Shown: positions 7,451 through 33,210, counted from the stretch's first letter. The stretch: DNA of 64,000 nucleotides from Kiritimatiellia bacterium (GCA_045535455.1 JAZSLQ010000125.1:1894-65893), one strand, 5' to 3'. Notes: generated by a model not told the origin, from the letters alone. Numbers and translations: made by a program.

Positions 7451-7461
7451 TGTGGTATAAT
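7451..7461 (+). promoter_or_regulatory. extended -10 promoter TGTGGTATAAT
   Basis: Followed by a GGAGG Shine-Dalgarno at 7472-7476 and the ATG at 7484. Confidence 0.5.
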
Positions 7462-7483
7462 ATGCGGCGTTGGAGGAAATGAC

Positions 7484-8634: not shown

Positions 8635-8680
8635 GCACCTTTACCTTGCGGCGGGAAAGAACCGCCAGAAAGGAAAGGTG
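8635..8680 (+). promoter_or_regulatory. 5'-leader stem-loop that sequesters the RBS, upstream of the toroid-protein gene
   Basis: CACCTTTACCTT at 8635-8646 can pair with the Shine-Dalgarno region AAAGGAAAGGTG at 8669-8680. An inner hairpin is formed by gcggcgg...ccgcc. Confidence 0.4.
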
Positions 8681-8684
8681 CAAC

Positions 8685-16670: not shown

Positions 16671-16748
16671 CTGAAGGAAAAAATACCCCCTTGCGGTGTG
16701 TGTACACCTTATGGTAAACTATACTCTCATAAGGCATAATAGGCAATC

Positions 16749-17039
16749 ATGGTACGACGTAAGAACAAAAATGGCGAATCACGTCATGGTAAACACGCCA
16801 TAGGCGCTTTTAGAGTCTCGCTCTACCTTTCTGCAGAGGAGAAGGCCATTGCCATTCTAACGGCCGAACGGCAGAAAAGGACTATCTCTGATGTTATAAG
16901 AAATGGAATAGTGAGCGAAGCAACGCGTTCCGGTGTGATGGTTGGGGGACAGATTGCCGGTAGATTCCGCGTTCGTATAGATGCATATAAGAATGTGCTC
17001 ACTGCGGATGCGCAAATCAAAAGGAGTACTGGCCTATGA
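16749..17039 (+). CDS. ribbon-helix-helix protein (CopG/MobC-like) in a low-GC islet
   Basis: FRVSLYLSAEEKAIAILTAERQKRTISDVIRNGI fits the RHH/MobC N-terminal pattern. Local GC is visibly lower than the surroundings. Confidence 0.4.
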   Translation: MVRRKNKNGESRHGKHAIGAFRVSLYLSAEEKAIAILTAERQKRTISDVIRNGIVSEATRSGVMVGGQIAGRFRVRIDAYKNVLTADAQIKRSTGL

Positions 17040-17218
17040 ACAGAGTCGAACAAATCATCGCATTTGTCGATAGGGAATCTCCGGGGGTGCTCGACAGTGT
17101 GGCGGAAGAAGATGGTATATCCAAGGAGGAGATAGTACGCAAGGTACTCGCTCTTTCTAATGGTCGCATGGTGTACACACACCAAGATCGGGATAGAGTC
17201 ACTACCGATGAATCATGA
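17036..17218 (+). CDS. small hypothetical protein (60 aa)
   Basis: Overlaps the RHH gene by 4 nt. No recognisable domain. Confidence 0.3.
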   Translation: MNRVEQIIAFVDRESPGVLDSVAEEDGISKEEIVRKVLALSNGRMVYTHQDRDRVTTDES

Positions 17219-18452
17219 CTTAAGAGTGAAACGGCGCAGGGGTTTTCCGACGGCATTGTTTGCCGCCTTGCTTTTCTCTGCCTGTTTTGGCGCGGAGATT
17301 ACGCAGCCGTCCTTTGGCAGCGACGGCATAGACCGTACTGACCCTAACTTCGTCACGGCGTCGTTACTTTGGATAGGGCCGGGCGAAGAGTTTTTTGGCT
17401 GTGCGGGGCATTCGAGCATCAGATTGGAGTGCCCGAAGTTCAACCTAGACTATTGTTTTTCATGTGAAAGCGAAAGTATTCGTGAAAACTTTGGCCGCTT
17501 TTTAATGGGTGGTCTGAAGACAGGAATGTTTGCAATTCCGACTAAAGAGTTTCTCAAGTTGTATGAAGACTTAGGACGGAGCGCGACGCAATACAAGTTG
17601 AATCTCCCGCCCGATGTGAAACAGCGGCTTTGGGAGATACTTGATAAACAGGTTGAGGATGGGCGTTGCCTGCCATACGACTATATTAAATACTGTTGCG
17701 TTCAGACGATGCTTCAGCCGTTGCTTAAAGCAATTCCACCCTATGAACTTAAGCCAGGTCCTTGGCCCGAAATCTATAAGTTGACGCGCCGTGAAGTGTT
17801 GGCGAATGATCTAGAATGGTGTCCGTGGACAAGATTCTTCCTTCACACGATTGCGGGTACGGAGGTGGATCGTGAGGTGTCTCCGTATAAGACAGTTATC
17901 CTATCCAGGGATTTCGTCAATCTTCTAAGAGATGCGACAATCAACGGGCAGCATATAATAGAAGGTGACGGGGAAGTCCTATTGCCTTTCCAGAAGCCAA
18001 AGAAGACGGCTATAGTAACGCCGGTCATGGCGGCGGCGTGTGTGCTTGTTGTGGCGTGTGTAAACTTGTTGTTGCGGACAAAGTGGATAGATTGGAGTTT
18101 CCTGATTTTCCAGTCGTTGCTTGGACTCTTAATCTCTCATCTTGTGTTAATCTCGCACTTGCCTGCAACTGACTGGAACTGGCTAATCGTGCCGTTCAAC
18201 ATCATTCCGCTTGTATTTTGGAAGTGGCGTCACAAGTGGGCTTTGTGGTTTGCAGGTCTGCTTGTAGCGTGGGATGCATTCATGATTTTCCATCCGCATC
18301 GCCTGACCGATCCTGCATATTTTGTATTGGTCGCCGCATATATCGTATTTTACATCAAGGTCTTTCTTGGCGGCCCCAAAATGTGTCAGGCGGTTTCAAA
18401 ATGGGCAGACAGTTTTTTGCCTAAGGCAGTGCAGTGGCTTAATGAGGAATAA
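17208..18452 (+). CDS. DUF4105-domain (Lnb N-terminal-like) protein with a C-terminal multi-TM region
   Basis: ASLLWIGPGEEFFGCAGHSSIRLECPKFNLDYCF matches the DUF4105 start (LL.cgPGde.ys.fGHsaiRv). At least four TM helices follow in the C-terminal third. Confidence 0.6.
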   Translation: MNHDLRVKRRRGFPTALFAALLFSACFGAEITQPSFGSDGIDRTDPNFVTASLLWIGPGEEFFGCAGHSSIRLECPKFNLDYCFSCESESIRENFGRFLMGGLKTGMFAIPTKEFLKLYEDLGRSATQYKLNLPPDVKQRLWEILDKQVEDGRCLPYDYIKYCCVQTMLQPLLKAIPPYELKPGPWPEIYKLTRREVLANDLEWCPWTRFFLHTIAGTEVDREVSPYKTVILSRDFVNLLRDATINGQHIIEGDGEVLLPFQKPKKTAIVTPVMAAACVLVVACVNLLLRTKWIDWSFLIFQSLLGLLISHLVLISHLPATDWNWLIVPFNIIPLVFWKWRHKWALWFAGLLVAWDAFMIFHPHRLTDPAYFVLVAAYIVFYIKVFLGGPKMCQAVSKWADSFLPKAVQWLNEE

Positions 18453-18486
18453 TCATTGAAACAACATGGGAACACAGGAAAAGAAC

Positions 18487-21400
18487 ATGAAAGAAAAAAC
18501 AATGAAAAAGATTACGATAATGGCGTTTCTGCTGGCGATACTCGCGCCTGTTATGCAGGTGTGGGCAGGAAGCGGCGGCTCTACGACATATTATGCTGCA
18601 TTGAAGGCGCAGGTGTCGTCCAATTCGTCTGGCATGGGTAAGGTCTATGCTGGAACGTCGAATTCAGCACCGTCGGCGAGTAGTTACAAAGCTGATTACT
18701 CGCAAAGCTCCAGTCAGAATTCTACGACGGAGAATGAAAAAAAGAATTTTTATGCTTTTGCGCAGGCGAATGATGGGTATGAGTTTGTCGGTTGGTCCAC
18801 CAGCAACAATGGCTCAACATCTTCATCTGCAAGTCCTTATACTGTTCAAGTGGCATGCACGTCCTCCACTGAATCCAGCCCTACGGTGACGACGGTTTAT
18901 GCAAATTTTAAGAAGAAGGTTCTTGCTGCGTTCAACATCACCTTTGAGACGAGTAGTGCGGGCAGTTATACTGTTGATGGCGCGGCACCGGCCAACAAGA
19001 CAGGATTGACGGAAGCGACTTCCATTACGTTGGCATCGTCCGATGACAAATTCTTAAACTGGGTTGTCAATGGTGCCGAGGTCACGACCAACCCCTATAC
19101 TGCAAGTTATACAGCGAACACGACTATCAGTGCGGTGTTCCTGACCGCAGACATGGTTACTTCTGTCACCACACTTAGCGACTTGACATCGGCACTGTCC
19201 AATGCTCAGTACAAGAAAGTCACCATTCCTTCAGGAACTACGATCCAGATTCCCAAGGGCTCGACGGTTACGGTTCCTTCTGGAAAGCAACTGGTGATGG
19301 ACGGAACGCTGATTGTCTTGGGGACGCTGTCGAACTCCGGTGCGATTTCTGGTAATGGAACGCTCTACAAGATTTCGTACAAGATTGATCAGGGCGATGT
19401 CATTACTGTTTACACGGCTGATGGCAAGGAGTGCGGTGCCATGACGTGTGCCTGCCAAGATTCCAAGATGCCGCGCTACTGCAAGACGACGGTTACGGCG
19501 AACACACCGACTGTCAGCGGAACAATTGGTTGCACGACAACGTGGGGCGTACTTCTTAACGGTACGACGGCATACGCAATCAGAAATCAGAGCCCGAAGG
19601 CGGTCAAGGTTAATGTTGATACGGCGAAGGATTCCAATGGAAAACAGAGCGTCGTCAACAAGATTACATCGGTTGTCGCAAATGGCAATGTGGATGCTTT
19701 GGATGCGAATGCCAACTATGTTCTCTTTGCTGATTGTAGCATGACGGGGCCGTTGGACAGCAGTAAACTTAGGAGCACGGCAACCGTAGATTGTGCAGGT
19801 AAAAAACTGTCTGCCGGTACCAATTCGCATTCGTCATTTGGCATTAGCGTGTTAAATGGTTCGTTTTCGGCTTCTGCTAGCCAGTGGCAGAACGCTCATG
19901 CTGCGTTCTTCAACATGTCCTCCGTGTCGCTTAGCAAAATCAAGGGCACGGTTTCTACCTATTACTTCTATGACTGTGGCACGTCGGCGTCGGCGTGTTC
20001 CCTTTCGTTCGCCTACTACAGTTCGACGCGCACTTCAGATTACCGAACTATCTATCTGTATAGCGGTTATTACAGCTATTCGTTCAACACAACAGACGAT
20101 TCTGGCAAATGCAATGTGTACGGTGGTTCGTTTACAAAAGATCCTTCAGCTTACATCCCGTCTACTTATGACGGAATTATCGACGCCAAGTACGATGGCA
20201 GCAAGTATTACGTCGTGGGGGCGGCACAGGTCGCTGAGACGCTGGCAACTATTGGCGATGCCAAGTATTCTTCTCTCGCAGATGCCGTGGAAGCAGCCAA
20301 TACCGGAGATGAAATTACGCTAAGCGCTGCAATAGACTTGACAGGGAAAACGATTACGATTCCATCTGGCAAGTCCATTACACTTACGCTTGAGAACCAT
20401 CAAATCACGGGCGGTAGAATTGTGAACTATGGAACTCTTATACTCACCGATTCCGCCACAGGGACAGGCACAACCAACGCCGATCCAAGCGGTGGCATCT
20501 TGAATAGCGATATAGATAACTATGGTACGCTTGATTTCGTTTTTGGTACCTACAATGGTGCAATATCTAATAAAGAGGGTACACTTACTACGCACAACGG
20601 CATCTTCAATGGTGCATTGGCAAAAGAAGGCGGCTCGGTCAATTTGCGGGGTGGACATTTTAAGCAGGATGTAACTTCATTTGTAACGTCTGACGCATTT
20701 ATCGTAATCCGAAAGAATAATCTTTATAGCGTTTGTGAACTTCCAGATGGGACGTTGCGCGACACGACAATCAATGGCGTTGCGGGGAGCGCCGCCACGC
20801 CCTATTCAGACGCCGATTACACGCTTATCGCCAATTGGTTCACTGGGACGAAATCTTTACGCACTGGCTACTCGGCGGAAACTTGGGAGCATCTTGCCGA
20901 ATTGCTGTGTTTCTATCAGGTGTTCAACAACAACGGACTTGATGCAACGCTCAAATTTGATCGTGATGTTGCCGCCAATACAATCACACTTCATGCGAGG
21001 ACGACGGCTGCAGCTTCTCGTGCAATTGCAAATGACCTTTCTGCAGATTCGCTCTATCGTGGATTGTCCGAAGTCTTGAATGGTGGAGGATATGCTTCTA
21101 AAACATACAAGGCGTTGTGGCAAGATGATATAAAAACTGTTGCATTGGCTGTTTCGGATTCAACTGTTGGTGCAAACGCAGGTACGGTTTGCACCGAGAT
21201 GATTGAGCTCTGGGAGGAGGTCCGTGCCTCTGACTACTCATCTACTGGGCATAAGTTGACGAATACAGTCCTTATTGTTGGTCAGAAGCGCTTTACCATT
21301 GGCGCTGGCAGCAATGTGGCGATGATTCGCCCCGATGTCGGCGCGGCGACGTTCTATGCGACACTTGACGCGGCGGTGGCGGCGGTCGTGGACGGCGGGA

Positions 21401-22737
21401 CTATCATGCTGGCTAATGATTGTGATAATAATGTGACTGTCGAAAAGGCTTGTACGATTGATACCAATGGATTCAAATTCACTGGTAAGATTGAGACCAC
21501 TGGAGGATATTCCATATCGGAATCTGACGGCGTTTATGTGGTCAAGGCCCCAGACCCCGCCGACTTGGTGAATGTCGAGAATGTCGTTTCGGATGTCGTT
21601 TCTGAAGAATGGCTGGAAGCGAACGAGATTTCGACCGAAGGCAAGACGACAGAAGAAATTCAGGCGGAGGTTCTGGAGAAGTTGAACGAAGAAGATACCA
21701 ACGGCAATGCCAAGTGGGAGAATCTTGTAATTGGCCAGAATGCCGATGAAAAGGCCGCTGTAACCGCTGCCAGCGGTGGTACCGAGACGACTGCCAATAT
21801 AGAGGTGTCCTTCGAAGTCCCGACTAACGCTGAGACGGGTGAGAAGATAGAAACTGGCTATACGGTCAAGTATGCGTTCGACAAGACCGACAGCACTGGG
21901 ACGCTTGAAGGCGAGGCACAAGACAACCCGACGATTGATCTCAAGGGTGTAAAGGAAAACGATCCGACTTACTTCACGATGCGCGCTGTGCTTGAGGCGA
22001 CTGATAACAGCGGAGTGACGGCGGAGGTGCCAGTCGAGAAGACCATTGGCGTCTTTAAGGTGGAGTCCGATGCGGCAGTTACGATTATTCCTGTGCCGTG
22101 GAAGTCGCTTGGCGACGAAGACATCAAGGCGACTGAGCTTGTCCATGCCGCGAGCCTCAGCGATGATGACGAGTTGATTGTCTATGGCGCTGATGGCAAA
22201 TCGCAGACTTGGATTGTGAAGAACGGCGAATGGACTGCTCCGGTTGCTGAATACACTATCGGTGACGATGTTTCCGAGCCGCAGCAAGAGGAACAGCAAG
22301 AGGCCGCTGAACTCTCGCGCGGGCAGGGCGCTATACTAAAGCGAAAGGACACAACCAAGGAGATCGTACTTATCGGACAGGCGGTCACGAGTGAGACGGT
22401 AGAGACGACAATTGCTGCTGCAGGCACAGAGCCGAGCTGGAATCTTGTCGCCTCGCCCAAGATGGAACAGGTTGCGGTTGATACCGTTGCAGGTGAAAAC
22501 ACGTCCGACGAGATTATCGTGCCGACAGCCGGTACGCCGAAGCATTATACCTACAAGGATAATGCGTGGGGTTATACTGGGAAGATCGGCGAAACAGAGG
22601 TGACATTGCCTGGTGGAGTGAAAACAACGGCTGTCCAGTTCGGACGCAAGACGGATGATACGAGCGTTCCCGCGGGTACGGGCTTCTGGTATTTGAACAA
22701 GGATTCCTCCAACAACGATAAGAAGATTACGTGGTAA
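18487..22737 (+). CDS. giant secreted surface protein 1 (about 1417 aa) with a right-handed beta-helix and a conserved C-terminal domain
   Basis: A signal peptide (MKEKTMKKITIMAFLLAILAPVMQVWA) and a Ser/Thr-rich region with a Listeria-Bacteroides-repeat-like block (YAFAQANDGYEFVGWS). Gly/Thr/Asn-rich beta-helix turns follow. The C-terminal 300 aa or so is paralogous to the C-terminus of the 23274-27098 protein. Confidence 0.7.
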   Translation: MKEKTMKKITIMAFLLAILAPVMQVWAGSGGSTTYYAALKAQVSSNSSGMGKVYAGTSNSAPSASSYKADYSQSSSQNSTTENEKKNFYAFAQANDGYEFVGWSTSNNGSTSSSASPYTVQVACTSSTESSPTVTTVYANFKKKVLAAFNITFETSSAGSYTVDGAAPANKTGLTEATSITLASSDDKFLNWVVNGAEVTTNPYTASYTANTTISAVFLTADMVTSVTTLSDLTSALSNAQYKKVTIPSGTTIQIPKGSTVTVPSGKQLVMDGTLIVLGTLSNSGAISGNGTLYKISYKIDQGDVITVYTADGKECGAMTCACQDSKMPRYCKTTVTANTPTVSGTIGCTTTWGVLLNGTTAYAIRNQSPKAVKVNVDTAKDSNGKQSVVNKITSVVANGNVDALDANANYVLFADCSMTGPLDSSKLRSTATVDCAGKKLSAGTNSHSSFGISVLNGSFSASASQWQNAHAAFFNMSSVSLSKIKGTVSTYYFYDCGTSASACSLSFAYYSSTRTSDYRTIYLYSGYYSYSFNTTDDSGKCNVYGGSFTKDPSAYIPSTYDGIIDAKYDGSKYYVVGAAQVAETLATIGDAKYSSLADAVEAANTGDEITLSAAIDLTGKTITIPSGKSITLTLENHQITGGRIVNYGTLILTDSATGTGTTNADPSGGILNSDIDNYGTLDFVFGTYNGAISNKEGTLTTHNGIFNGALAKEGGSVNLRGGHFKQDVTSFVTSDAFIVIRKNNLYSVCELPDGTLRDTTINGVAGSAATPYSDADYTLIANWFTGTKSLRTGYSAETWEHLAELLCFYQVFNNNGLDATLKFDRDVAANTITLHARTTAAASRAIANDLSADSLYRGLSEVLNGGGYASKTYKALWQDDIKTVALAVSDSTVGANAGTVCTEMIELWEEVRASDYSSTGHKLTNTVLIVGQKRFTIGAGSNVAMIRPDVGAATFYATLDAAVAAVVDGGTIMLANDCDNNVTVEKACTIDTNGFKFTGKIETTGGYSISESDGVYVVKAPDPADLVNVENVVSDVVSEEWLEANEISTEGKTTEEIQAEVLEKLNEEDTNGNAKWENLVIGQNADEKAAVTAASGGTETTANIEVSFEVPTNAETGEKIETGYTVKYAFDKTDSTGTLEGEAQDNPTIDLKGVKENDPTYFTMRAVLEATDNSGVTAEVPVEKTIGVFKVESDAAVTIIPVPWKSLGDEDIKATELVHAASLSDDDELIVYGADGKSQTWIVKNGEWTAPVAEYTIGDDVSEPQQEEQQEAAELSRGQGAILKRKDTTKEIVLIGQAVTSETVETTIAAAGTEPSWNLVASPKMEQVAVDTVAGENTSDEIIVPTAGTPKHYTYKDNAWGYTGKIGETEVTLPGGVKTTAVQFGRKTDDTSVPAGTGFWYLNKDSSNNDKKITW

Positions 22738-22744
22738 CCGCTTT

Positions 22745-23254
22745 ATGAAGAAAATTCTCGTAAAAAGTTGTCTGACCGTCGCGCTTGCGCTTTGCGCGCA
22801 AGCAACGATGGCGGATTATCTATATTTTCTCGTCGGTGACGATTCCGGAAATTCGCCTACATATAACGATGACCCTGTTGTCTACAGCTATGCAACAGTT
22901 AAGATGACGGGTGCTGGTGACAGCAGTGGTTATCTGGAACTCTATGCTGGTGGCGCTACTGAGTCGTCCGGCATTGCTATGATGTCCGGAAGCACCGCCC
23001 CAGCATACGCCAAGTTGCCGGACAATTATAAAAATGCTTACAGCACGTTCCTAGTCGAGCTGTGGAATGAAGATGCTAACCGTGTGGCGTGGCAGAGTTA
23101 TAACTTGGCTGGTGTAGGCGGGAATATAGTAGGCAGCAACGCGCAGGGATCTCAGCTTAATGTGACTACTGTTATACCTGAGCCGACTGGCGGGATGCTT
23201 ATGCTTCTCGGCATGGCGGTTTTGGCCATGAGACGCAAGGCAAGAATGTTTTAA
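22745..23254 (+). CDS. small PEP-CTERM sorting-domain protein (169 aa)
   Basis: Signal peptide present. The C-terminus VIPEPTGGMLMLLGMAVLAMRRKARMF has the PEP motif, a TM segment and RRK. Paralog of the 27133-27633 protein. Confidence 0.85.
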   Translation: MKKILVKSCLTVALALCAQATMADYLYFLVGDDSGNSPTYNDDPVVYSYATVKMTGAGDSSGYLELYAGGATESSGIAMMSGSTAPAYAKLPDNYKNAYSTFLVELWNEDANRVAWQSYNLAGVGGNIVGSNAQGSQLNVTTVIPEPTGGMLMLLGMAVLAMRRKARMF

Positions 23255-23273
23255 CTAAGGAAAGGACACAACA

Positions 23274-26200
23274 ATGAAAAAAATGAAGATGCTGATCGCA
23301 GGGTTTGTGCTGGCGCTCGCTGGCATGGCAACTGCGGCTATGGATACGGTGCTGACCTTTTCAACGGTTGGCCCAGACAGGTATGCCGACGGCGAAGACG
23401 TCGTTGACGGCGAGTGTTATGCGCTCGTCTGGACGTCTGATGTGGCTGGCTTTACCTTGTCAGACGACGGCACGGCTACTGGCGGGAAGGTTGTTCTTGT
23501 CGCACCTGTCGCCGAAGGCAGGCGCTGCCCGCCGGTTAAGCTGAACATCAAGGCGTCCGTCGCCCCTCAGTACGAGGGTGGCGTCTGGGGAGTGTACCTT
23601 CTCGACACGCGTGAATCTCCCGAAGGCGAGCGTGTAATTAGCGGAGTCAAGCTCATTCCCGATGCGACGGTTGATGTCGCGAGCGAGGGCTATCTTGTCC
23701 ATACGACCATGAAGTCGAAGGCGCTGCTCGGCGCTTCCGCCGGCGTGGTTGATGCCGAGAGCCTGGTCGCTGCGGTTGCCGCTGGTGGTGAGGTAACGGT
23801 CGCGGCCGATATCACGCTCAATGACGAGCTGGTTGTCGAAAAGGAAGTGACGCTTAATCTTGGAGAGTACAAGATCACTGCGGCGAACGGCAAGAACGCG
23901 ATTCAGGTCGCGGCCGGCGGAAACCTCACGATCAATGCGGAGTCGACGGGCGGTGTTTCGGCGTCCAACGCGCTGGCTGTCTATGCCGACTACGAGCTTT
24001 CGCCCGGCGTGAAGACGATCACGATCAATGGTGGCGTATTCGACGGTGCGCTGCAGTTCAACAAGTATCCGCTCCACACCTCTGAAGTGCAGTCCGGCGA
24101 GGCGGCTGTTCCGACGACGGTTGTTGTCGGTGGCGGTACGTTCAAAGGCCGCGTGAGCATTTACCACTGCCCGTTCACTGTGAATGGCGGTACGTTTGAG
24201 CAGGGCCTTGACACGTCTGACGGTAGCGTTACGGTCTATGCCAACTACAAGTGTCCGGTCACGTTCAACGGCGGTAGCTTCAAGGTCAGGCCGACGCCTG
24301 CAGGTTCGCGCGTTGTCGTCAATGGTGGCGTGTACTACGAGGGTGGTTACTTCAAGGTTGGCGACACAGCCGACTGCCAGGCGACGCGCAATGGCACATA
24401 CTATGCTTCGCTCGCCGAGGCGTTCCAGGACATCGGGCCTGGCACTGTGATCACCGTTCTTGGCGGTGATGAGGCGTCTATCTCTGTCGAGCTTGAACCC
24501 GGCCAGTCGCTGACGGTCCCGTCTACGTTCGCGGGTGCGATAGCGGGCAAGGGTGGTGCTGAACTTGTTGTCACGTATGTGGATGGCACAGCCATCTACA
24601 TGGTAAAGGCGGAGGGCGTGGCGCGTATTGGTGCGCAGTACTACGCCACGCTTCAGGCGGCGTTTGACGCAAGCAAGACCAATGACGTCATTACGCTTCT
24701 TGCCGATGACACGCTTGCGTTCACCTCGCTTGACCGTGCAATCACGCTTGACCTTAACGGCCACAACGTGACGGTGACGGGCGGTGCGGCGGACCTCTCC
24801 AATGGTGCGCTCACCATTGTCGGTAGTGGCCACATGACGGGCTTCGTCGAGCCTTCCGCTGGAAAGGTGAACCTTGTCCTCAAGGGCGGTACATACGGGT
24901 TCGATCCGTCTAAGTACGCTCCGTACGTCATTGAGGCGCTTCCGAACGAGCAGGATCCGGTAGACTGGAGCAATGATCGTCACTATGTGTTCAAGGATTA
25001 TGCGCTTGGCGTCTATGGCGGTTTCCCTTATTGGGCACCAGAAAAGGGCGTGTGGACGGTTGTTCCCGTGCCGAAGGCTTACGTGTCGGCCTATCCTACG
25101 AAGGAAGTCGGCATTGGCGACCCGCTCGACGCCGCTTATTCGTTCGGTGCGTTCAACGCCAACAATGGCGGTGCCAGCTATTGTTCTGACCGCGAAGTTG
25201 CCGACAAGGTTATTACAGGCGACGGAATGCTCAACCTCAACGCACTGACAGATCCGGAGGAGATCACCCGCGCTCTGGCGGTGCTGACCGAGGCGACGCC
25301 GTTCCTCGATTGGCACGCAGACTTCGCGGTGTCGTTCGACAAGCCAATCACGGCTGGTTCGCTCACGCTCGCCGGACAGTACAATGGTTGGTCGAGCAGC
25401 TGGGTATCGTATCCTGCGCCGGCTAATGTTGGAGCGAATGTGGTTCGCCGGCTCCTTGCGGACGAGGGCGGCGCTAGACCCTCCGACTGGCCGTATCAGC
25501 ATATCTGCACTAAGGTGAAAGACTTCAACTGCGGTGCGCGCATGGACGATAGCTCCATCATCGGGACGACGATGAAGGTCCAGCTCAGGCTCTACAAGCC
25601 GGACGGCGACGAGGGCACTGGTTCGCCGTCGATTCTCATCTGCGAGTACAAGTACACGTTCGGCGGCAAGGCGGCACGGATCGAGGACACATTCTACGAT
25701 TCGATTGACGAGGCCATTGCCGAAGTTCAGTCCAACGACGTCGTGGTCGTCCTCAACGACTACACTGGCGCGGTCGATATCAACAACTGCGACAAGCCGT
25801 TCACGGTCAACAGGAATGGCTTCGTGCTTGGAGTGACCGAAACGAACAACATCAATAAGGCAAAGGGCACCGATTGGCACTTCGACAGAATGAGCAACGG
25901 CAGCTGGAGCTACTACAACAAGCCGGCGCCTCCGTCCGAGGATGTGGCTGTCGTCATGGTCGAAGTCGTCGACGATGCGGGTGAGTCTATGTCACTCTCG
26001 GCGCTCACTCCTGATGCGGAGTGGCTGGACAAGAAGACGCAGGAAGGCGAGACGGCCGAGCAGGCTCTTGCCAAGGTCGAGGAGAACGGCAACCAGGCAT
26101 GGCAGAACTACGTGATCGGACAAGATCCGAGCGCGGCAGTCCGTGTCAACACCGCGCAGGCGGATATTGATAAAACACCTGTCGATAACACGCTTACCGA

Positions 26201-27098
26201 AAAGGTGAATGTGCCTACCAATTCCGGCTTCAAGGTGTCGTACGCCATCGACAAGATTGAAGCAGACGGAACGGTTAAAGAGGGTACTCCTCAGGCTTCG
26301 GCAGAAAACTTTACTGTCGATCTTGAGAATGCGACAGACAACGAATCCGGAGTCGCCTACTTCAAGATGACTGCGATCATCGAGGCCGAAGACGGCACTG
26401 GTGCGAAGACCAAGGTTACGTCCGAGAACACCCTCGGCGTCCTGAAGGTTGATGCAACCACTAAGAACACGCCGGTTGCAGTTCCGTGGTCGTCTCTCGC
26501 CGACGACAAGGACATTACCGTCGATCAGCTTGTTCGCACGGCGACGCTCACTCCTGGCGACACGATGACGGCCTACGACAACGAAACGGGCAAGTATAAT
26601 GCCTGGGAGCTGCAGGATAACGGCACGTGGAAGACGGTGCAGTCCGCTGGCGGAGCGGAAACGCAAGATGCTTCTGAGTTTTCGGTTCCTCGCGGCGCGG
26701 CCGTGTGGGTGACGCGTCAGGATCCCACTCAGCCGCTTTACCTTGTAGGCGAGGTGGCGGAGAAGGCGGCCGAGACGCAACTTGAGCCAGCTCCTTCCGA
26801 AGAGAAGAAGTCATGGAATCTCGTTGCGTCTCCTTCGGTAGAGCCTGCCAAAGTTGAAGACATTCTTGCCGGCAACGAGGACTTCGATGTCATCATGGTT
26901 CCGACCGACGCAGCCCCTAAGGTCTACATCTACCGCGATGGCAAGTGGGGCTACGAGACCACCGAAGAGGTTATCAGGGGGGGCCAAGTGGTTGGTGTCA
27001 GGTCAGTGTTCAAGACGGATGACACCGAGATTCCCGCAGGTGTCGGCTTCTGGTACCTCAATGGAAGTACCGATGGCAACAAGACTGTTGAATGGTAA
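23274..27098 (+). CDS. giant secreted surface protein 2 (1274 aa) with a beta-helix and the same conserved C-terminal domain
   Basis: Signal peptide present. Beta-helix repeats such as GGVFDGALQFNKYPLHT and GGTFKGRVSIYHCPF. The C-terminal blocks SWNLVASP and GFWYLN are shared with giant protein 1. Confidence 0.7.
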   Translation: MKKMKMLIAGFVLALAGMATAAMDTVLTFSTVGPDRYADGEDVVDGECYALVWTSDVAGFTLSDDGTATGGKVVLVAPVAEGRRCPPVKLNIKASVAPQYEGGVWGVYLLDTRESPEGERVISGVKLIPDATVDVASEGYLVHTTMKSKALLGASAGVVDAESLVAAVAAGGEVTVAADITLNDELVVEKEVTLNLGEYKITAANGKNAIQVAAGGNLTINAESTGGVSASNALAVYADYELSPGVKTITINGGVFDGALQFNKYPLHTSEVQSGEAAVPTTVVVGGGTFKGRVSIYHCPFTVNGGTFEQGLDTSDGSVTVYANYKCPVTFNGGSFKVRPTPAGSRVVVNGGVYYEGGYFKVGDTADCQATRNGTYYASLAEAFQDIGPGTVITVLGGDEASISVELEPGQSLTVPSTFAGAIAGKGGAELVVTYVDGTAIYMVKAEGVARIGAQYYATLQAAFDASKTNDVITLLADDTLAFTSLDRAITLDLNGHNVTVTGGAADLSNGALTIVGSGHMTGFVEPSAGKVNLVLKGGTYGFDPSKYAPYVIEALPNEQDPVDWSNDRHYVFKDYALGVYGGFPYWAPEKGVWTVVPVPKAYVSAYPTKEVGIGDPLDAAYSFGAFNANNGGASYCSDREVADKVITGDGMLNLNALTDPEEITRALAVLTEATPFLDWHADFAVSFDKPITAGSLTLAGQYNGWSSSWVSYPAPANVGANVVRRLLADEGGARPSDWPYQHICTKVKDFNCGARMDDSSIIGTTMKVQLRLYKPDGDEGTGSPSILICEYKYTFGGKAARIEDTFYDSIDEAIAEVQSNDVVVVLNDYTGAVDINNCDKPFTVNRNGFVLGVTETNNINKAKGTDWHFDRMSNGSWSYYNKPAPPSEDVAVVMVEVVDDAGESMSLSALTPDAEWLDKKTQEGETAEQALAKVEENGNQAWQNYVIGQDPSAAVRVNTAQADIDKTPVDNTLTEKVNVPTNSGFKVSYAIDKIEADGTVKEGTPQASAENFTVDLENATDNESGVAYFKMTAIIEAEDGTGAKTKVTSENTLGVLKVDATTKNTPVAVPWSSLADDKDITVDQLVRTATLTPGDTMTAYDNETGKYNAWELQDNGTWKTVQSAGGAETQDASEFSVPRGAAVWVTRQDPTQPLYLVGEVAEKAAETQLEPAPSEEKKSWNLVASPSVEPAKVEDILAGNEDFDVIMVPTDAAPKVYIYRDGKWGYETTEEVIRGGQVVGVRSVFKTDDTEIPAGVGFWYLNGSTDGNKTVEW

Positions 27099-27132
27099 TC
27101 GTCTCTAAACGCCAAAAGAGAGGAACTACGAC

Positions 27133-27633
27133 ATGAAATCGGTCAAACTTATCATTGCTGCAGCTGCCGTCGCAATTGCGACGACAGCTATGGCGGAGCC
27201 CGACAGCATACTCTACTGGATGGTAGACAAGCCGACATACGAAGATTCGGCCGTGGCTTTCGACCATGTGAAGATTAAGGCGGTTGACGGTGGAACCGGA
27301 AGCTACCTCTATATGTTCAACCAGGGAGCGAGCACGGGATACGATGTGGCCTTCGCGAAGGAGTCGGGCGACACCACTGGCGGCCTCTTCTCGGGGCTGT
27401 TCGACGGCAACGTGGATTACTTCCTCATCGAGCTGTTCGATGACTCGGATTCTCGAGTTGCCTGGCAGCGCGTCAGCTACCAGATGGCCTTTGACAACGG
27501 CAGCATATCGTCACCGTTGGCGGCTGGTGGCGCCACCGTGTATACCATAAGCCAGGTCGTGCCTGAGCCGACGAGCGGCATTCTTCTGCTGCTTGGTTTC
27601 GCCGGACTCGCCCTCCGTCGTAAAAAAGCATAA
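27133..27633 (+). CDS. small PEP-CTERM sorting-domain protein (166 aa), paralog of the 22745-23254 protein
   Basis: The C-terminus VVPEPTSGILLLLGFAGLALRRKKA carries the signal. The blocks LIELFDDSDSRVAWQRVSY and LVELWNEDANRVAWQSY are shared between the two proteins. Confidence 0.85.
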   Translation: MKSVKLIIAAAAVAIATTAMAEPDSILYWMVDKPTYEDSAVAFDHVKIKAVDGGTGSYLYMFNQGASTGYDVAFAKESGDTTGGLFSGLFDGNVDYFLIELFDDSDSRVAWQRVSYQMAFDNGSISSPLAAGGATVYTISQVVPEPTSGILLLLGFAGLALRRKKA

Positions 27634-27657
27634 CATCTGACAGAAAGGAATCATACA

Positions 27658-28401
27658 ATGAAGAAGACAGTATTCTCCGCGCTTGCGGCAATTCTTGTCG
27701 GAACTGCTTTCGCGGCAGCCAACGACAAGCTCGTCATGTTCTCGACCAAGGGACCCGATACCTACGCAGACGGCACCCAGGTTCTCGACAAGGAGTGCTA
27801 CGCACTTGTCTGGGACAAGGATTCCGAGCCGTTCAGCGTCGCGGCCGACGGCTCTACGACCGGCGGCGACATCGTGCTTTTCGCGCCATTTGCCGAAAAG
27901 GGACGTTGCCCGAAGGTGCTCTTCGAGGTGGACGCGGCGCTTGTCGAGAGCAAGTACACCAAGGGGGGCTCCTGGAAGGTCTATCTGCTTGACACGCGTC
28001 GCTTCGGCGACACGGTGACGCTCGCTCCGCTTGTGAACGGAAAGCCGTCGCTCATCAATGCGGCCGGTCTTGTCGGCAATGCGGCAATCAGCGTGGCCGC
28101 TGGCGCTCCAAACTCCGTGAATGTGGCCGCTGGCACTACGGCGGCCACGGCGACGGCTCTTCCGGCAGGCGATGGAAACGTCACGCCGAAGATCTCCGAC
28201 ATCAATGTCAGCGGCGATCTTGTCTACGTGACGGTTGAGAACACCCGCCCGTATCTCGCCTATGATCTGACGGAGGGCGCCAAGCCCGGTGAAGTGACGG
28301 AGCGCGTCAACAATCCGCGTACGGGCGGGGATGACGGCAAGGTCGTACTCGTCGCCCCGAAGAAGGACGGCGGCGCGTTCTTCCGCGTAAACCGCAAGTA
28401 A
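27658..28401 (+). CDS. secreted protein that is a stand-alone paralog of the N-terminal domain of giant protein 2
   Basis: VMFSTKGPDTYADGTQVLDKECYALVWDKD...GRCPKV...VYLLDTR aligns with residues 25-110 of giant protein 2. Confidence 0.6.
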   Translation: MKKTVFSALAAILVGTAFAAANDKLVMFSTKGPDTYADGTQVLDKECYALVWDKDSEPFSVAADGSTTGGDIVLFAPFAEKGRCPKVLFEVDAALVESKYTKGGSWKVYLLDTRRFGDTVTLAPLVNGKPSLINAAGLVGNAAISVAAGAPNSVNVAAGTTAATATALPAGDGNVTPKISDINVSGDLVYVTVENTRPYLAYDLTEGAKPGEVTERVNNPRTGGDDGKVVLVAPKKDGGAFFRVNRK

Positions 28402-28409
28402 GAAGCGGA

Positions 28410-30668
28410 GTGCAAGACACAAAGGCACTTGACGGTGGACTGGCCGCGCGGGATTTTATTCTCGCATCAGCGGCCGGTCTGCTTTCTTTTGCCGCGTTCT
28501 ACTGGCTCTCAATTCCGGGGCTCGACCCTTCGCAGTGGAGCGAGGTCGCCGTTGCCGCACGGCTTCGCCCGCCGCAGGCGATGTTGCCCGGGCTTTGGCG
28601 TGTGCTGACGTGCGGTTTCTTTTCCGCCGTCGGCATACCATTTGCGGTAAAGGCCCTTTCGCTGCTTGGCGCAGCCGTGGGCGGCATCTGCGTCGCCCTC
28701 GTCTATCTTGTGGTTCGCCAGTCGTTTCTGTTCCTGGCGCGCCTTGACGAGAAACATGCCGTCTGGACTAATTTCATCTCGCCGTTCTTTGCGATGGTCG
28801 CAGCGCTTTTTGTCGCCGTGGCCGACCCGATATGGCGAATAAGCCAGACCTTTTCGCCTGAACAGCTTCATTTGCTGTTGTTGCTTTTGGCGATATACGC
28901 CTGGCTCAGGTGGATTACGCTCGGCAGCAACTGGCGTCTTTATTCCCTGGTGGCGCTGCTGGGGGTGGCGTCCGCCGAAACGCCATTCGCGATTATCCTG
29001 ACTCCGCTGCTCCTTGCTGGTTACTGCCGCTTTCAGCGCTGCGTGGAGAACGGCATGGCCTTCAATCACAAGCTGGTGTACGCTCTGGGCCCCCTGCCCC
29101 GCTGGCGAATGTTCTTTATCTTCATCGGTTCGCTTGGCTTGGCCATCCGGATGAATGTCAAGATCTTCGCTGCGCTTGGCGGCGTAGCAGCCAACGGCTG
29201 GCGAATGGGCGATCTATACTTCCGGTACGGCATTGACTACTGGCACGTGCTGACGGGCTCTTCGAATCTTGCCGGTTGGGCGCTGGGCCTTGGCTTCGGG
29301 CTGTTTCCGCTTGTCGTGACGATGATGCTCCTGCCCCGTTCGATAAGAGACACCCGTCCGCTGGCGTTCCACCGCGGAGTCCTTCTCTTTTTTGTTTGCG
29401 CGCTCGCGGTCATGCAGTGCGGCGCATTCCCGGCGGCCCGGTTCTGGACGCTGGCGACGGAGACGGCTTCCGTCTCGTCCGGCTTTTTCCTGTCTTTCTA
29501 CGTGGTCTGCTCGGCCGTGACCATCGCCATGGTCGGGGCCACCTTCGCATTTGAATGCCAGCGGGTCTATCTATCCGTCGACGAGCCAAGGCCCGGCCTT
29601 GCGCTGCGCGGCCTTGTACCCGCAGTTGCGGTCGCGCTTTTTGCGCTCGCGGCCGCCCATGCTTCGCGGACGGTCGAGGCCGAGATGCAGCGGATTGTCC
29701 GTGACGCGCTGGAAGAGACGGTGCGCGAATGCGGCGATGCGAAGTGGATCTTCACGGACGGACGCCTCGACGACGGGCTTTCGCTTGTTGCCGCGGAGTC
29801 TGGACGGGAAATCGTGCCTCTCAACATGATGTCCGGCGCAACTCGCTGGGAACAGTCCTTGCGGGAGCGTCATTTCCCCGAGGGTAGCGCAGATCGCGAC
29901 AATGCGTCCATCGGCATACCGGCGCTTCTCAGGGTCTGGGCGGGCGAAAAGCCTGGCGGGATGGATGAGGCGGCGGTGCAGCTTGGCTTTGAATTCTGGA
30001 AGCGCGAGCATAAGTCGCCGCCAAAGGCGTCTGGCTTCGTTGCGCGTACAAGCGGCATGAGCGACGAAGAGGCGGCGAGAGGAATCGAGGCGGCCAAAGC
30101 GCTATCCGCGCGAATTTTTGAGCTTGAGGGCAAGAAGGAACGCGCCCATCCGTCTCCTGCGCTCGCGGACGCGCTTTCATTCGTTTCGTGGCGTCTTTCG
30201 CGCCTGGCTCGGTTTAGGAATGACGACGATACCGCTGACAGGCTTGACCGCGGCAACGCGGCACTCAAGAGGACGTTGTCCGTAGTAGATCATGAACGCC
30301 AGCGCACATTCATGCGCCTGACGCCGTTGGAAGGGTTGCGCCTCGCCTTGGGCCGTACCGACTTCGTCGAGGCGCGTCGCCATGCGTCGGCCGTCTTGAA
30401 AAGTGACGAGGATCATCCAGAAGCCAACTTCGGCATGGGCATGAGCTATCTTGTGGAGGGGCGTTTGAACGATGCGGAGCTTTACCTTAGGCGGTGTCTG
30501 AAGAAGTGTCCCAACGAGCCGGCGGTCCTAAACAACCTTTCGATAATTTGTCGCAAGACGAATCGCTACGAAGAGGCGGAGGAACTTGCGCGGAAGGCGC
30601 TCAAGGTGTTTCCCGATTCGCCAGAGGTCAAACAGACGCTGCAGGACGCAATAAACAGGGCTAAGTAG
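28410..30668 (+). CDS. polytopic membrane protein (10 or more TM helices) with a C-terminal TPR domain, possibly a glycosyltransferase or O-antigen-ligase-like (DUF2723/PMT-like) protein
   Basis: GTG start. The N-terminal 420 aa is hydrophobic and multi-helical. C-terminal TPRs include ANFGMGMSYLVEGRLNDAELYLRRCLKKCPNE. No exosortase CSG motif was seen. Confidence 0.45.
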   Translation: MQDTKALDGGLAARDFILASAAGLLSFAAFYWLSIPGLDPSQWSEVAVAARLRPPQAMLPGLWRVLTCGFFSAVGIPFAVKALSLLGAAVGGICVALVYLVVRQSFLFLARLDEKHAVWTNFISPFFAMVAALFVAVADPIWRISQTFSPEQLHLLLLLLAIYAWLRWITLGSNWRLYSLVALLGVASAETPFAIILTPLLLAGYCRFQRCVENGMAFNHKLVYALGPLPRWRMFFIFIGSLGLAIRMNVKIFAALGGVAANGWRMGDLYFRYGIDYWHVLTGSSNLAGWALGLGFGLFPLVVTMMLLPRSIRDTRPLAFHRGVLLFFVCALAVMQCGAFPAARFWTLATETASVSSGFFLSFYVVCSAVTIAMVGATFAFECQRVYLSVDEPRPGLALRGLVPAVAVALFALAAAHASRTVEAEMQRIVRDALEETVRECGDAKWIFTDGRLDDGLSLVAAESGREIVPLNMMSGATRWEQSLRERHFPEGSADRDNASIGIPALLRVWAGEKPGGMDEAAVQLGFEFWKREHKSPPKASGFVARTSGMSDEEAARGIEAAKALSARIFELEGKKERAHPSPALADALSFVSWRLSRLARFRNDDDTADRLDRGNAALKRTLSVVDHERQRTFMRLTPLEGLRLALGRTDFVEARRHASAVLKSDEDHPEANFGMGMSYLVEGRLNDAELYLRRCLKKCPNEPAVLNNLSIICRKTNRYEEAEELARKALKVFPDSPEVKQTLQDAINRAK

Positions 30669-30783
30669 AGTCTTTGCTTCCCGCAACACTCCCATCCCCC
30701 GTCAGTCGACGGGGGATTTATGCTACAATATGTGCGTCGCAAAAGCGGTTGTCGCGGAAGTTGGTGCACTGCGGAGTGGAAAA

Positions 30784-30794
30784 TGTGGTATAAT
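30784..30794 (+). promoter_or_regulatory. extended -10 promoter TGTGGTATAAT upstream of serA
   Basis: Match to the consensus about 60 nt upstream of the ATG at 30856. Confidence 0.4.
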
Positions 30795-30855
30795 ATCCGC
30801 TGTCGTCATGCGTGACGGCAAATTCCATGATAAACTCTACGGAAGAAAGCGAAAA

Positions 30856-32022
30856 ATGAACTACAAATACAACTGCCTCAATCCGATTGCGGATTGCGGG
30901 CTGGACAACCTGGGCGAAAACTACGCCCGTACCGAGAAATTCGAAGAGGCCGATGCCGTCTTCGTGAGAAGCGCCAAGATGGACGAGCTCGTCCCTGGCC
31001 CTAATCTCCTCGCCGTCGCGCGCGCTGGCGCGGGCGTCAACAACATCCCCCACGCCGAATACGCCAAGAAGGGAATCGTCGTGTTCAATACGCCCGGCGC
31101 GAACGCAAACGGCGTCAAGGAACTCGTGATTGCCGCGATGCTCCTCGCGAGCCGCGATATCTTGGGTGGCGTCGAGTGGGTCAAGGAGAACGCCGCCGAT
31201 CCCGCAATCGGCAAAGCCGCCGAGAAGGCCAAGAAGGCGTTTGCGGGAACCGAAATCCAGGGCAAGAAGCTCGGCGTCATCGGGCTTGGCGCAATCGGCC
31301 AGAAGGTCGCGAACGCCGCTGTCGAGCTCGGCATGGAGGTCTTCGGCTACGATCCCTACCTTTCCGTCGACGCCGCGTGGCAGCTCGACCATGCCGTGAA
31401 GCACTGCAAGAACGTCGAGGCTATCTACCGCTCCTGCGACTTCATCACCATCCACGTTCCCGCGCTCGATTCCACCAAGGGCATGATCAACGCCGACGCG
31501 CTTGCAATGATGAAGCGCGGCGTCATCATTATCAACGCGGCGCGCGACGCACTCGTCAACGAGAAGGACATGCTTGCCGCGATTGAGTCCGGCAAGGTCC
31601 GCAAGTACGTCTCCGACTTCCCCAACGCGACGACCGCCGGCCAGAAGGGCTGCATCGTGATCCCCCACCTCGGCGCCTCCACCGAGGAGTCAGAGGACAA
31701 CTGCGCGGTCATGGCCGTAAAGGAGATGCGCGACTTCCTCGAGAACGGAAACATCGTCAACTCCGTCAACTACCCGGCGTGCTCGCTCGGCATCCCCAGC
31801 AAGGCCGGACGCGTGGCGATCTGCCACAAGAACGAGGCGAACATGATCGGTACGTTCACGTCGATCCTCGGCAACGCCAAGGTCAACATCGACGCCATCG
31901 CAAACAAGAGCCGCGGCGACTTCGCCTACACGCTCATCGACACCGACTCCGCGATTCCGGCCGACGTCGTGAAGGCCCTTGAGGCCAGCGACGCTGTCAT
32001 TCGTGTCAGAATCGTGAAGTAA
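30856..32022 (+). CDS. serA: D-3-phosphoglycerate dehydrogenase with a C-terminal ACT domain
   Basis: KKLGVIGLGAIGQKVA is the NAD-binding GxGxxG motif. The 2-hydroxyacid dehydrogenase catalytic region and a C-terminal ACT-like 70 aa are present. Confidence 0.85.
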   Translation: MNYKYNCLNPIADCGLDNLGENYARTEKFEEADAVFVRSAKMDELVPGPNLLAVARAGAGVNNIPHAEYAKKGIVVFNTPGANANGVKELVIAAMLLASRDILGGVEWVKENAADPAIGKAAEKAKKAFAGTEIQGKKLGVIGLGAIGQKVANAAVELGMEVFGYDPYLSVDAAWQLDHAVKHCKNVEAIYRSCDFITIHVPALDSTKGMINADALAMMKRGVIIINAARDALVNEKDMLAAIESGKVRKYVSDFPNATTAGQKGCIVIPHLGASTEESEDNCAVMAVKEMRDFLENGNIVNSVNYPACSLGIPSKAGRVAICHKNEANMIGTFTSILGNAKVNIDAIANKSRGDFAYTLIDTDSAIPADVVKALEASDAVIRVRIVK

Positions 32023-32031: not shown

Positions 32032-33210
32032 ATGGGCTACGCGAAGAGAAAGACGTCTGGAGCCGGCGCAGAAACCGCGCTGGAAAAGGCGTCTTCCTCT
32101 CGCGCAGTCCAGTCTTCCAAGTCGTCGCAGTCGATCTGGAACCTCCAGTTTGGAGGCTCGAAGCAGAAGACGTCGATGAAGTCCGTCGAGGTCCTTCTCT
32201 TCACTTCCGAACTTGCGGACCTGATCGAAGCCGGCATGACTCTTGGCCAGGCGCTTCAGGCGCTCGCCAACCAGGGCGAGGAGGACTCTGCCCAGCGCTA
32301 CGTCTGCCAGGACCTTTGCGACCGCATCGTTCGTGGCGAGACGTTTTCCGACGCCTGCGCGCACCATCCGAAGACGTTTCAGCCGCTCTATTCGAACATG
32401 ATCCGCGCCGGCGAGGCGTCGGGCGCTCTCGTCGAGGTGCTGCGCCGCCTGGCCGACCACTACGAACGCTACGACAACATGCGCGGCAAGATCAAGAGCG
32501 CGATGTCGTATCCGGTGATCGTCCTCTGCTTTGGCGTCGCCGCCGTCATAGGCGCGCTAGTGTGGATTATCCCGAAGTTCAAGAAGGTGTTCGATTCGAT
32601 GGGCGCGGCCTTGCCTCTCCCGACCCGGATGCTCATCGGGCTTTCCGAGTTCCTGATCCACTACGGCTGGACGCTCGCCATCGCCGCCGTCTTGTTCTTC
32701 ATCTGGTTCAGGAAGTGGAAGGATACGCCCGCCGGCCGCGCGAAGATCGACGGCTGGAAGCTCAAGGCGCCGCTCGTCAAGGGCATCGTCGCGGCAGGTG
32801 CGTATTCTTCGCTTGCCTACACGCTCAAGACTCTTCTCACAAACGGCGTGAACGTCCTTCAGGCGCTGAAAATATCTGAAGAGACGTGCAACAACGCCGT
32901 GATCGCCGAGGCGCTTGCGACGGCTCGTCGCCGCGTTACCGACGGCACTTCGATTTCGGGGCCTCTCGCGTCGTCGGGCGTCTTCCCGCGCATGATGACA
33001 GACATGCTCGCCGTCGGCGAACAGGCCGGCGACATGGCGGCTTCTCTTGAACACATCGGCAAACGCTACCAGAAGGATATGGACCGCAACATCACGGCCT
33101 TCACGAACGCGCTCGAGCCGATTCTGATCGTAATGATCGCCGGCGCCGTCGGCTTTGTCGCGATAGCGATTCTGATGGCGGTATTCCAGGTCTCATCGTC
33201 GCTTGGGTAA
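32032..33210 (+). CDS. type II secretion / type IV pilus platform protein (GspF/PilC family)
   Basis: Two GspF-domain repeats, for example LIEAGMTLGQALQALA and MLAVGEQAGDMAASLEHIGKRY, and three TM segments. Confidence 0.8.
   Translation: MGYAKRKTSGAGAETALEKASSSRAVQSSKSSQSIWNLQFGGSKQKTSMKSVEVLLFTSELADLIEAGMTLGQALQALANQGEEDSAQRYVCQDLCDRIVRGETFSDACAHHPKTFQPLYSNMIRAGEASGALVEVLRRLADHYERYDNMRGKIKSAMSYPVIVLCFGVAAVIGALVWIIPKFKKVFDSMGAALPLPTRMLIGLSEFLIHYGWTLAIAAVLFFIWFRKWKDTPAGRAKIDGWKLKAPLVKGIVAAGAYSSLAYTLKTLLTNGVNVLQALKISEETCNNAVIAEALATARRRVTDGTSISGPLASSGVFPRMMTDMLAVGEQAGDMAASLEHIGKRYQKDMDRNITAFTNALEPILIVMIAGAVGFVAIAILMAVFQVSSSLG

Follow-up and report, generated by a model that had tools for sequence, protein, structure and literature searches.

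The locus and the domain shared by X and giant 2

We analysed a stretch of 64,000 nucleotides (nt) from a Kiritimatiellia bacterium (GCA_045535455.1, JAZSLQ010000125.1:1894-65893; hereafter the window, with positions counted from its first letter), and in particular the open reading frame (ORF) at 27658..28401 (+ strand), whose 247-amino-acid (aa) product is called X here. The gene is the last of a run of six with gaps of 7-35 nt, in the order Lnb-like membrane protein, giant 1, small PEP-CTERM protein 1, giant 2, small PEP-CTERM protein 2 and X, and the gaps between giant 2, small protein 2 and X are 24-34 nt (Table 1). A preliminary description of the window, made from the sequence alone, had presented X as a free-standing paralog of the N-terminal domain of giant 2. 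We consider it very probable that the following three points hold jointly: X is a full-length member of a protein family of its own, it belongs to a conserved gene cassette, and its N-terminal domain passed from the small gene to the giant one.

X begins with MKKTVFSALAAILVGTAFA|AAND, a Sec-type pattern as judged by eye, in which MKK-TVFSALAAILVGTAFA-AAND provides a charged n-region, a hydrophobic h-region and an AxA site; A20 is invariant in an alignment of 54 X-family sequences (alignment A1), of which the X of the window is the first. A ribosome-binding-like motif, AAAGGA, is located 8 nt 5' of the ATG. The AlphaFold2 model of X, obtained with A1 as the input alignment (predicted local distance difference test, pLDDT, 84.3; predicted template modelling score, pTM, 0.73), consists of two beta domains, namely an N-domain with strands in residues 23-147 and a C-domain with strands in residues 178-246 (pLDDT >90 in the C-domain), and the residues 149-162 between them are disordered. 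The linker is also poorly conserved, with 52% identity to the X of L002, one of the loci from other genomes described below, versus 78-81% in the two domains. Residues C47 and C84 in the N-domain are invariant in A1 and probably form a disulfide.

The similarity between X and giant 2 was readily detected by BLASTP, which aligned residues 3-115 of X with residues 5-114 of giant 2 (56 of 113 positions identical, 50%; E=1e-28), and the blocks that the preliminary description had read as common to the two proteins (FST.GPD.YADG..V.D.ECYALVW, TGG..VL.AP.AE..RCP.V and VYLLDTR) are all inside this alignment. The core in common corresponds to residues 22-117 of X, and the signal peptide directly precedes the N-domain in both proteins. 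The Smith-Waterman score of mature X against mature giant 2 was 255, while 300 shuffles gave 45.9 +/- 6.7 (z=31), and the match is therefore not compositional. The hidden Markov model (HMM) of the family N-domain found giant 2 at E=6.5e-35 with no other match in the 64-kb window, and giant 2 retains 21 of the 22 invariant family positions in residues 20-114, G82 alone deviating. The preliminary description had allowed for a non-significant or compositional similarity, and these values indicate that the similarity is real. The explanation by composition, chance or an assembly artefact, for which nothing other than the Ala/Gly-rich character of the region can be adduced, is practically negligible in the face of the E value, the shuffles and the retained invariant positions; as for an artefact, the fusion is found in independent assemblies (L002 and L003 from two samples, plus L013 and L070).

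No similarity at the DNA level was detectable between the genes of X and giant 2, and the duplication is therefore old; a recent duplication or gene conversion of the two N-domain copies was rejected on the same ground. Taken alone, the sharing of a domain by X and giant 2 is an ordinary gene fusion. The idea of a modular domain common to a small and a giant gene was thus sustained, whereas its framing as a paralog of the giant's domain was not, since the direction is likely to be the reverse; nor is X a free-standing single domain, since it has a conserved C-domain of its own, which giant 2 is without.

The preliminary description had also reported that the TGG..VVLVAP motif of the N-domain recurs at the C-terminus of X. 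The two copies are literally present (TGGDIVLFAP at residues 68-77 and TGGDDGKVVLVAP at residues 222-234), but when the whole family is considered, a repeat structure has no robust statistical support. BLAST of the two copies gave E=0.17, and hhalign of the N- and C-domains aligned 17 columns at E=1.3e-5 when close relatives only were used and 15 columns at E=0.015, with 3% probability, for the broad family. The C-terminal copy is absent from distant members, for example that of L036. The broad profiles led us to reject an internal duplication relating the N-domain and the C-domain of X.

Table 1. Features of the cassette region, with positions in the window and the basis of each assignment
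Feature	Position	Strand	Basis
Lnb-like membrane protein, cassette head	17160..18452	+	Lnb_N E=4.7e-7
Giant 1, 1423 aa, with giantC module, without X-type N-domain	18466..22737	+	HMM scan
GiantC module of giant 1	21700..22734		
Small PEP-CTERM protein 1, 169 aa, between giant 1 and giant 2	22745..23254	+	TIGR02595 17.1 bits (cut-off 16)
Giant 2, 1274 aa: signal peptide, X-type N-domain, variable passenger, giantC	23274..27098	+	
X-type N-domain on giant 2, residues 24-114	23343..23615	+	N-domain HMM E=1e-33
GiantC module of giant 2, ~residues 943-1274	26100..27095	+	giantC HMM E=5e-158
Small PEP-CTERM protein 2, 166 aa	27133..27633	+	PF07589 23.6 bits (cut-off 20.7), TIGR02595 25.9 (cut-off 16)
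Gene X: 247-aa two-domain protein with putative signal peptide	27658..28401	+	Full-length member of unnamed Kiritimatiellae family
Signal peptide of X, residues 1-21 (MKK, hydrophobic core, AFA|AA)	27658..27720	+	Read by eye
N-domain of X, residues 22-147	27721..28098	+	HMM match 22-117; AlphaFold2 strands 23-147, pLDDT ~90
Linker of X, ~residues 148-172, Ala/Gly/Ser/Thr-rich, flexible	28099..28173	+	pLDDT <50 at 149-162
C-domain of X, residues 173-247, five-strand beta-sandwich, ends FFRVNRK	28174..28398	+	C-domain HMM E=4e-36

The X family and its cassette

A word-indexed protein search with X returned 290 matches, and the best 120 of these were nearly all 240-260 aa in length, with 89-100% query coverage and, for the most part, 44-90% identity; the named relatives among these 120 are each a 'hypothetical protein' of Kiritimatiellae metagenome-assembled genomes (MAGs). 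Together with a second search of the same index (303 matches), the proteins listed were of either ~240-260 aa or ~400-470 aa. The profile search that had been proposed with the preliminary description was carried out over 1.84 billion representatives and defined a family of at least 737 clusters at 50% identity (E<=1e-3; 329 clusters at E<=1e-30), of which X covers the profile positions 1-247. The layout of N-domain plus C-domain is dominant, being present in 126 of the best 150 of the 737 clusters; a further 20 have a PEP-CTERM domain in front of the N-domain and the C-domain, and 4 are fragments. The family was found only in gut/rumen Kiritimatiellae.

In alignment A1, the invariant residues of the N-terminal half are D23, F28, G32, D34, Y36, D38, E46, C47, Y48, L50, W52, G65, L74, C84, P85, G104, W106, L111, T113 and R114, and the C-terminal half has the conserved block PYL.YDL ... 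LVAP ... FF.V. The X of the window fits the full-length family alignment from the signal peptide through the N-domain and the linker to the C-domain (C47, C84, W52, W106, LLDTR). Judged from these alignments, X is a full-length member of a large unnamed family and no by-product of the giant. No Pfam or NCBIfam family matched X at E<=0.1, and the 54 members of A1 gave no consistent family when compared with the curated families at E<=1. A profile search of X against the PDB sequences gave 0 matches at E<=10, and Foldseek of the X model against PDB (350,542 chains) and BFVD gave nothing at E<=0.001, with a best PDB E value of 0.04 and a generic beta-sandwich resemblance only.

We scanned the species genomes of GTDB for the locus, which returned 109 loci, and kept 80 of them (named in the style of L002); HMMs of the N-domain, the C-domain, the small PEP-CTERM protein, giantC (the C-terminal module of the giants, see below) and the Lnb-like protein were run on the six-frame ORFs of all loci. 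Nearly all of the 80 loci are from gut/rumen Kiritimatiellae MAGs, the few contigs that are otherwise named being probably mis-binned, and many MAGs supply 2-4 loci each, according to a tally of record titles. X, a giantC protein and a small PEP-CTERM protein occur together almost everywhere in these loci, with N-domain, giantC and small protein at ~1:1:1 per locus and at 2:2:2 in the window and L002. The cassette has two orders, namely giant, small, X in the window-like relatives and X, giantC protein, small in the distant loci. The contigs of four X homologs have a giant, a ~175-aa small protein and X in this order, with downstream genes that are unrelated between genomes. The giantC protein in the distant loci is often just a signal peptide with ~225 aa (a stand-alone, secreted protein of ~250 aa), and the minimal set, seen in L028 and L036, is three small secreted proteins. 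A small PEP-CTERM gene is directly upstream of, or fused to, 31 of the 84 X genes, and a giantC gene is directly downstream of 30; neither partner was found by HMM for 23, of which 11 are followed at once by a long ORF that continues beyond the end of the locus. The pairing with PEP-CTERM proteins, which the preliminary description had put forward as a check, is thus seen both in these 31 neighbours and in the 20 fused clusters among the best 150. Beside the giantC protein and the small PEP-CTERM protein, X makes up the remaining conserved part of the cassette, which is specific to gut/rumen Kiritimatiellae.

The fusions are proteins of ~400-470 aa in which a small PEP-CTERM domain is followed by the N-domain and the C-domain. 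They account for ~13% of the best 150 clusters and for 42 of 379 fetched proteins; examples are P0015, P0033, P0053, P0079 and P0101, and uninterrupted ORFs are found in L013 (9290..10699) and L022 (593..2059). At the junction, as in ...VIPEPSSALLLLFGLAGLAIRRRKVVVSMLAVAFVGATFAAQND..., a single basic cluster serves both the PEP-CTERM signal and, as the positively charged n-region, the X signal peptide, and the PEP-CTERM signal is internal. From this arrangement we infer a helical hairpin, by which both halves would end up outside the cytoplasm. Note that small protein 2 and X in the window are in the same frame with one stop codon, 24 nt apart. Readthrough from small protein 2 into X was considered and rejected, because in-frame spacing with a single stop occurs in ~1/3 of the loci, as expected by chance, and because X has a ribosome-binding-like site.

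The C-terminal regions of giant 1 and giant 2 are 31% identical over 647 residues (E=3e-55), and their core was named giantC. It has an internal duplication of ~95 aa (hhalign self-match with 92% probability, E=7e-7) and a conserved tail, GFWYLN...(I/V)xW; its AlphaFold2 model is all-beta (pLDDT 78.5), and Foldseek of this model against PDB gave no significant match. Small PEP-CTERM protein 1 aligns with the small-protein family (alignment A2). Remote homology among the N-domain, the small PEP-CTERM domain and giantC was rejected, as every hhalign probability was ~1% or lower. The protein at the cassette head, with an Lnb_N and a transmembrane domain, seems to be distantly related to Lnb, the lipoprotein N-acyltransferase of Bacteroides, although its NCBIfam Lnb score of 71.6 bits is far under the 550-bit cut-off, and an Lnb-like gene is found at the same place in L002, L006, L013, L018 and L021. 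No lipobox cysteine was seen in the signal peptides of the cassette proteins, and a scan of 16600..31000 for promoters and terminators gave nothing above the shuffled expectation.

The gene downstream of X (28410..30668), starting 9 nt after it, encodes a 752-aa protein with a long hydrophobic N-terminal part without a Pfam match and C-terminal TPR repeats, which show a weak similarity to PrsT, an XrtA/PEP-CTERM TPR protein (45.7 bits versus a 312-bit cut-off); this protein is not conserved 3' of X in other genomes. Other genes in the window encode a type II secretion protein F (32032..33210), a 1329-aa protein with DUF5107 and TPR (52138..56127) and a LamG-domain protein (60441..62096).

Origin of the giant 2 N-domain and the mosaic structure of giant 2

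The N-domain was found on giants only in the window, L002, L013 and L070, that is, in 4 non-redundant cases among ~80 loci; L003 has the L002 arrangement in a second assembly from a different sample. In a neighbour-joining tree of 86 N-domains, the four giant-borne copies form one clade, whose nearest free relatives are the window-type X. Since the free form of ~250 aa is widespread and the giant-borne copies are few and in one clade, the small gene is regarded as the donor and the giant as the recipient. The C-domain HMM had no match on any giant. The signal peptide and N-domain of giant 2 make up its lineage-specific first ~172 residues. The single giant of L006 (2392 aa) aligns with residues 13-1026 of giant 1 and with residues 173-1274 of giant 2 (67% identity), and has no counterpart of residues 1-172 of giant 2, while its own residues 1009-1300 are unmatched in the window giants. 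The single giants of L018 and L021 are similar to that of L006, having the giant 2 body without the N-domain.

The fusions on giants are not of one kind. The giant of L002 with the N-domain is at 5708..9424. The L070 fusion differs in layout from that of the window: the ORF at 5020..9957 (1646 aa) has an X-type N-domain and no detected giantC, and is followed by X, a short giantC protein and a small PEP-CTERM protein.

The word index was also queried with giant 2. Residues 1-150 returned only proteins of ~250 aa and giantC returned 9 short fragments; nothing longer than ~470 aa was returned for the giant 2 queries, and not even the L002 ortholog, which is ~88% identical in its first 100 residues, was among the matches. 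The index is evidently without giants, and their absence there is therefore no evidence of their non-existence. This under-sampling, and the N-terminal position of the domain right after the signal peptide in both proteins, would also suit the reverse direction implied by the title of the preliminary description, in which the N-domain is an ancestral leader of the giants and X the leftover of a truncated giant. We regard that direction as very improbable. The C-domain of X is conserved and absent from the giants, and full-length X is found in hundreds of clusters; the same loci have 84 free X genes and 4 giant ORFs with the N-domain, and most giants whose N-terminus falls inside a locus are without it. 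The giant copies, moreover, nest beside the window-type X in the tree, and the giant 2 body occurs without the N-domain in L006, L018 and L021.

With the small gene as the donor, we infer that the N-domain of X, together with its signal peptide, capped a truncated adhesin to give giant 2. The simplest scenario would start from an ancestor with a tandem pair of cassettes (giantA, small, X, giantB, small, X), and the 2:2:2 counts of the window and L002 are in keeping with it. In the lineage of the window, a deletion from inside X, after the N-domain, into giantB would have produced giant 2 with its N-domain; the X lying between the cassettes would have lost its C-domain and stop codon and been fused to the 5'-truncated giant downstream, and the fusion would have supplied giant 2 with a new signal peptide and N-domain. 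In the L006 lineage, a deletion from inside giantA into giantB would have produced the chimera.

Giant 2 proved to be a mosaic when compared with L002 and L006. Its identity to the L002 ortholog is 86% in the signal peptide, 89% in the N-domain and 51% from residue 173 to the end, and the free X proteins of the window and L002 are 81% identical in the N-domain and 78% in the C-domain; the fused N-domain is the best conserved segment of giant 2 and is thus under constraint, as expected of a functional domain. When compared in windows along the protein, residues 1-250 of giant 2 were 68-90% identical to L002 and 14-60% to L006, residues 251-950 (the passenger) 24-54% and 52-92%, and residues 1051-1274 (the giantC core) 58-88% and 36-58%, respectively. 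The X of the window is only ~47% identical to that of L006, despite the 52-92% in the passenger. The N-domain and giantC appear to be constant ends that follow the local cassette, with a passenger of different history between them, and the pattern points to an exchange of passenger domains between lineages by recombination. The mosaic lends support to modular shuffling as a feature of the locus in general, and also to the view of the two ends as parts that work with the cassette partners.

The base composition also changes along the cassette. The genes of the Lnb-like protein, giant 1 and small protein 1 (17000..23250) have a GC content of 0.48-0.50 and a GC content at third codon positions (GC3) of 0.51-0.54, and those of giant 2, small protein 2, X and the TPR protein (23274..30668) have 0.57-0.62 and 0.66-0.75, respectively. 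L002 has the same change, and in L006 it is found within the single giant gene (GC3 of 0.50 in the N-terminal part versus 0.77 in the C-terminal part). These values suggest a lower-GC donor of the giant-1-type module.

A possible role in surface display and comparison with known systems

As a whole, the explanation that joins the identity of X, its cassette and the direction of transfer to a role of X as an adaptor in a surface-display complex is, on balance, probably the best one. The adaptor role by itself is put forward tentatively, as a possibility that we would rate below even chances. In this model, an exosortase would process the PEP-CTERM signal of the small protein and so anchor that protein, and giantC would dock the cargo in the complex. 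The N-domain of X would be a binding module for a protein partner or a glycan, with a conserved polar and aromatic face (D34, Y36, D38, E46, Y48, W52, W106, T113 and R114), and through the C-domain X would be docked to the complex that giantC forms with the PEP-CTERM anchor after exosortase processing. In giant 2, covalent attachment of the N-domain would take over from the C-domain.

Several points weigh against this explanation. The searches of PDB and BFVD with Foldseek and of PDB with the profile gave no sequence or structural relative of known function behind an adaptor role, and the scan of window ORFs, which covered part of them, brought up no exosortase. The conserved neighbourhood and the fusions are evidence of a functional link, not of physical binding, and as most giants are without the N-domain, they do not require it in cis. 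Two of the four giant-borne copies have another residue in place of the first cysteine (ESY in L002 and EYY in L070) and keep the second, and a single uniform function is therefore less likely. Concerning the direction of transfer, the tree was obtained by neighbour-joining on ~95 residues, and long-branch attraction could have produced a false single clade; the giant-borne N-domains may also be under-counted, with the best 150 of 737 clusters inspected and a word index that evidently has no giants.

The N-domain may instead be lectin-like and bind glycans from the host or the diet, or else exopolysaccharide made by the cell itself, in which case X would be a free, surface-docked lectin without a role in assembly and giant 2 would merely have gained an extra binding tip. 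The invariant acidic and aromatic residues in loops and strands (GPD.YADG, ECYALVW, W106, LLDTR), the all-beta fold with a probable disulfide and the position at the far N-terminus of an adhesin-like giant are in keeping with such a domain, and there are a weak Laminin_G_3 match in one member and a ConA-like protein among the top BFVD matches, none of them significant. We nevertheless consider the lectin unlikely, because no fold or sequence match to a lectin or carbohydrate-binding module was significant and because a structural partner would better account for the fusions to the small protein and for the strict 1:1:1 ratio of X, giantC and the small PEP-CTERM protein. Still less probable, in our estimation, is a periplasmic chaperone or export partner of the PapD type, which would serve the giantC or PEP-CTERM proteins and be no part of the final structure. 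X does resemble the PapD-like chaperones of chaperone-usher pili in its size (~250 aa), its putative signal peptide, its two domains of beta-sandwich type and its place in operons with adhesin-like giants. The fold test was not passed, however, as no PapD-like protein was among the 50 Foldseek matches listed and none of these was at E<=0.001; X has a disordered linker of ~25 residues versus the tight two lobes of PapD, and a permanent fusion to the N-terminus of the client, at 89% identity, would be unusual. Nor did the cassette genes scanned include an usher-like one.

Returning to the adaptor, we also offer a broader and more doubtful proposal, namely that X, giantC and the small PEP-CTERM protein constitute an undescribed three-component surface-display system of gut/rumen Kiritimatiellae, linked to exosortase and present as several paralogous cassettes per genome. 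The N-domain and giantC would be constant, co-evolving handles between which passengers are swapped, varying adhesion or antigenicity, and the PEP-CTERM and X fusions would be cut into two exported proteins by way of the hairpin of sorting signal and signal peptide.

The Kiritimatiellae are common, and mostly uncultured, in gut and rumen communities, and to our knowledge the construction of their cell surface is essentially undescribed. The locus defines a recurrent, unnamed module of three genes, for a giantC adhesin-like protein, a PEP-CTERM anchor and X, with several copies per genome and with natural fusions that indicate which of the parts work together. The biochemistry of PEP-CTERM proteins is still poorly understood, and if X is an adaptor, the module would offer a route to how these proteins hold large surface cargo and to how passenger domains are swapped.

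The closest frame of reference is the PEP-CTERM/exosortase protein-sorting system (TIGR02595, PF07589) described by Haft and colleagues. The small proteins of the window share the PEP motif, the transmembrane helix and the basic cluster and pass the curated cut-offs, and they are multi-copy paralogs in each genome, as are many PEP-CTERM proteins; their best NCBIfam matches (PEP-cistern, NF038129) are far below the respective cut-offs. X and the giants, in contrast, are without the PEP-CTERM signal: X ends in ...GGAFFRVNRK, with no hydrophobic helix and no match to PF07589 or TIGR02595. The fusions differ in that the sorting signal lies in mid-polypeptide and is followed at once by a second signal peptide. 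In the libraries and literature searched, this three-gene set did not correspond to any PEP-CTERM subfamily or system described, and a literature search for PEP-CTERM or exosortase with Kiritimatiellae gave nothing relevant.

The csc/WxL clusters of Firmicutes are likewise multi-copy and consist of a covalently anchored component, small secreted partners and one very large, variable surface protein. The mix of components is the same as in the cassette, and by analogy a non-covalent assembly at the surface may be envisaged for both, whereas the phylum, the envelope type and the sequences are unrelated; the Foldseek match of X to WxLIP (9i25_C) was non-significant (E=0.28). The pattern of fusions is also that of Rosetta-stone proteins and modular adhesins, in that separate parts are fused in some genomes (the small protein with X, and the N-domain with a giant), and, as expected of adhesins with swappable passengers, the passenger and the ends of giant 2 have different nearest relatives. 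The Rosetta-stone pattern is a general principle with no defined family, and the modules described here are unnamed; the recurrent three-gene set and the fusions of a sorting signal to a signal peptide can be regarded as moderately novel.

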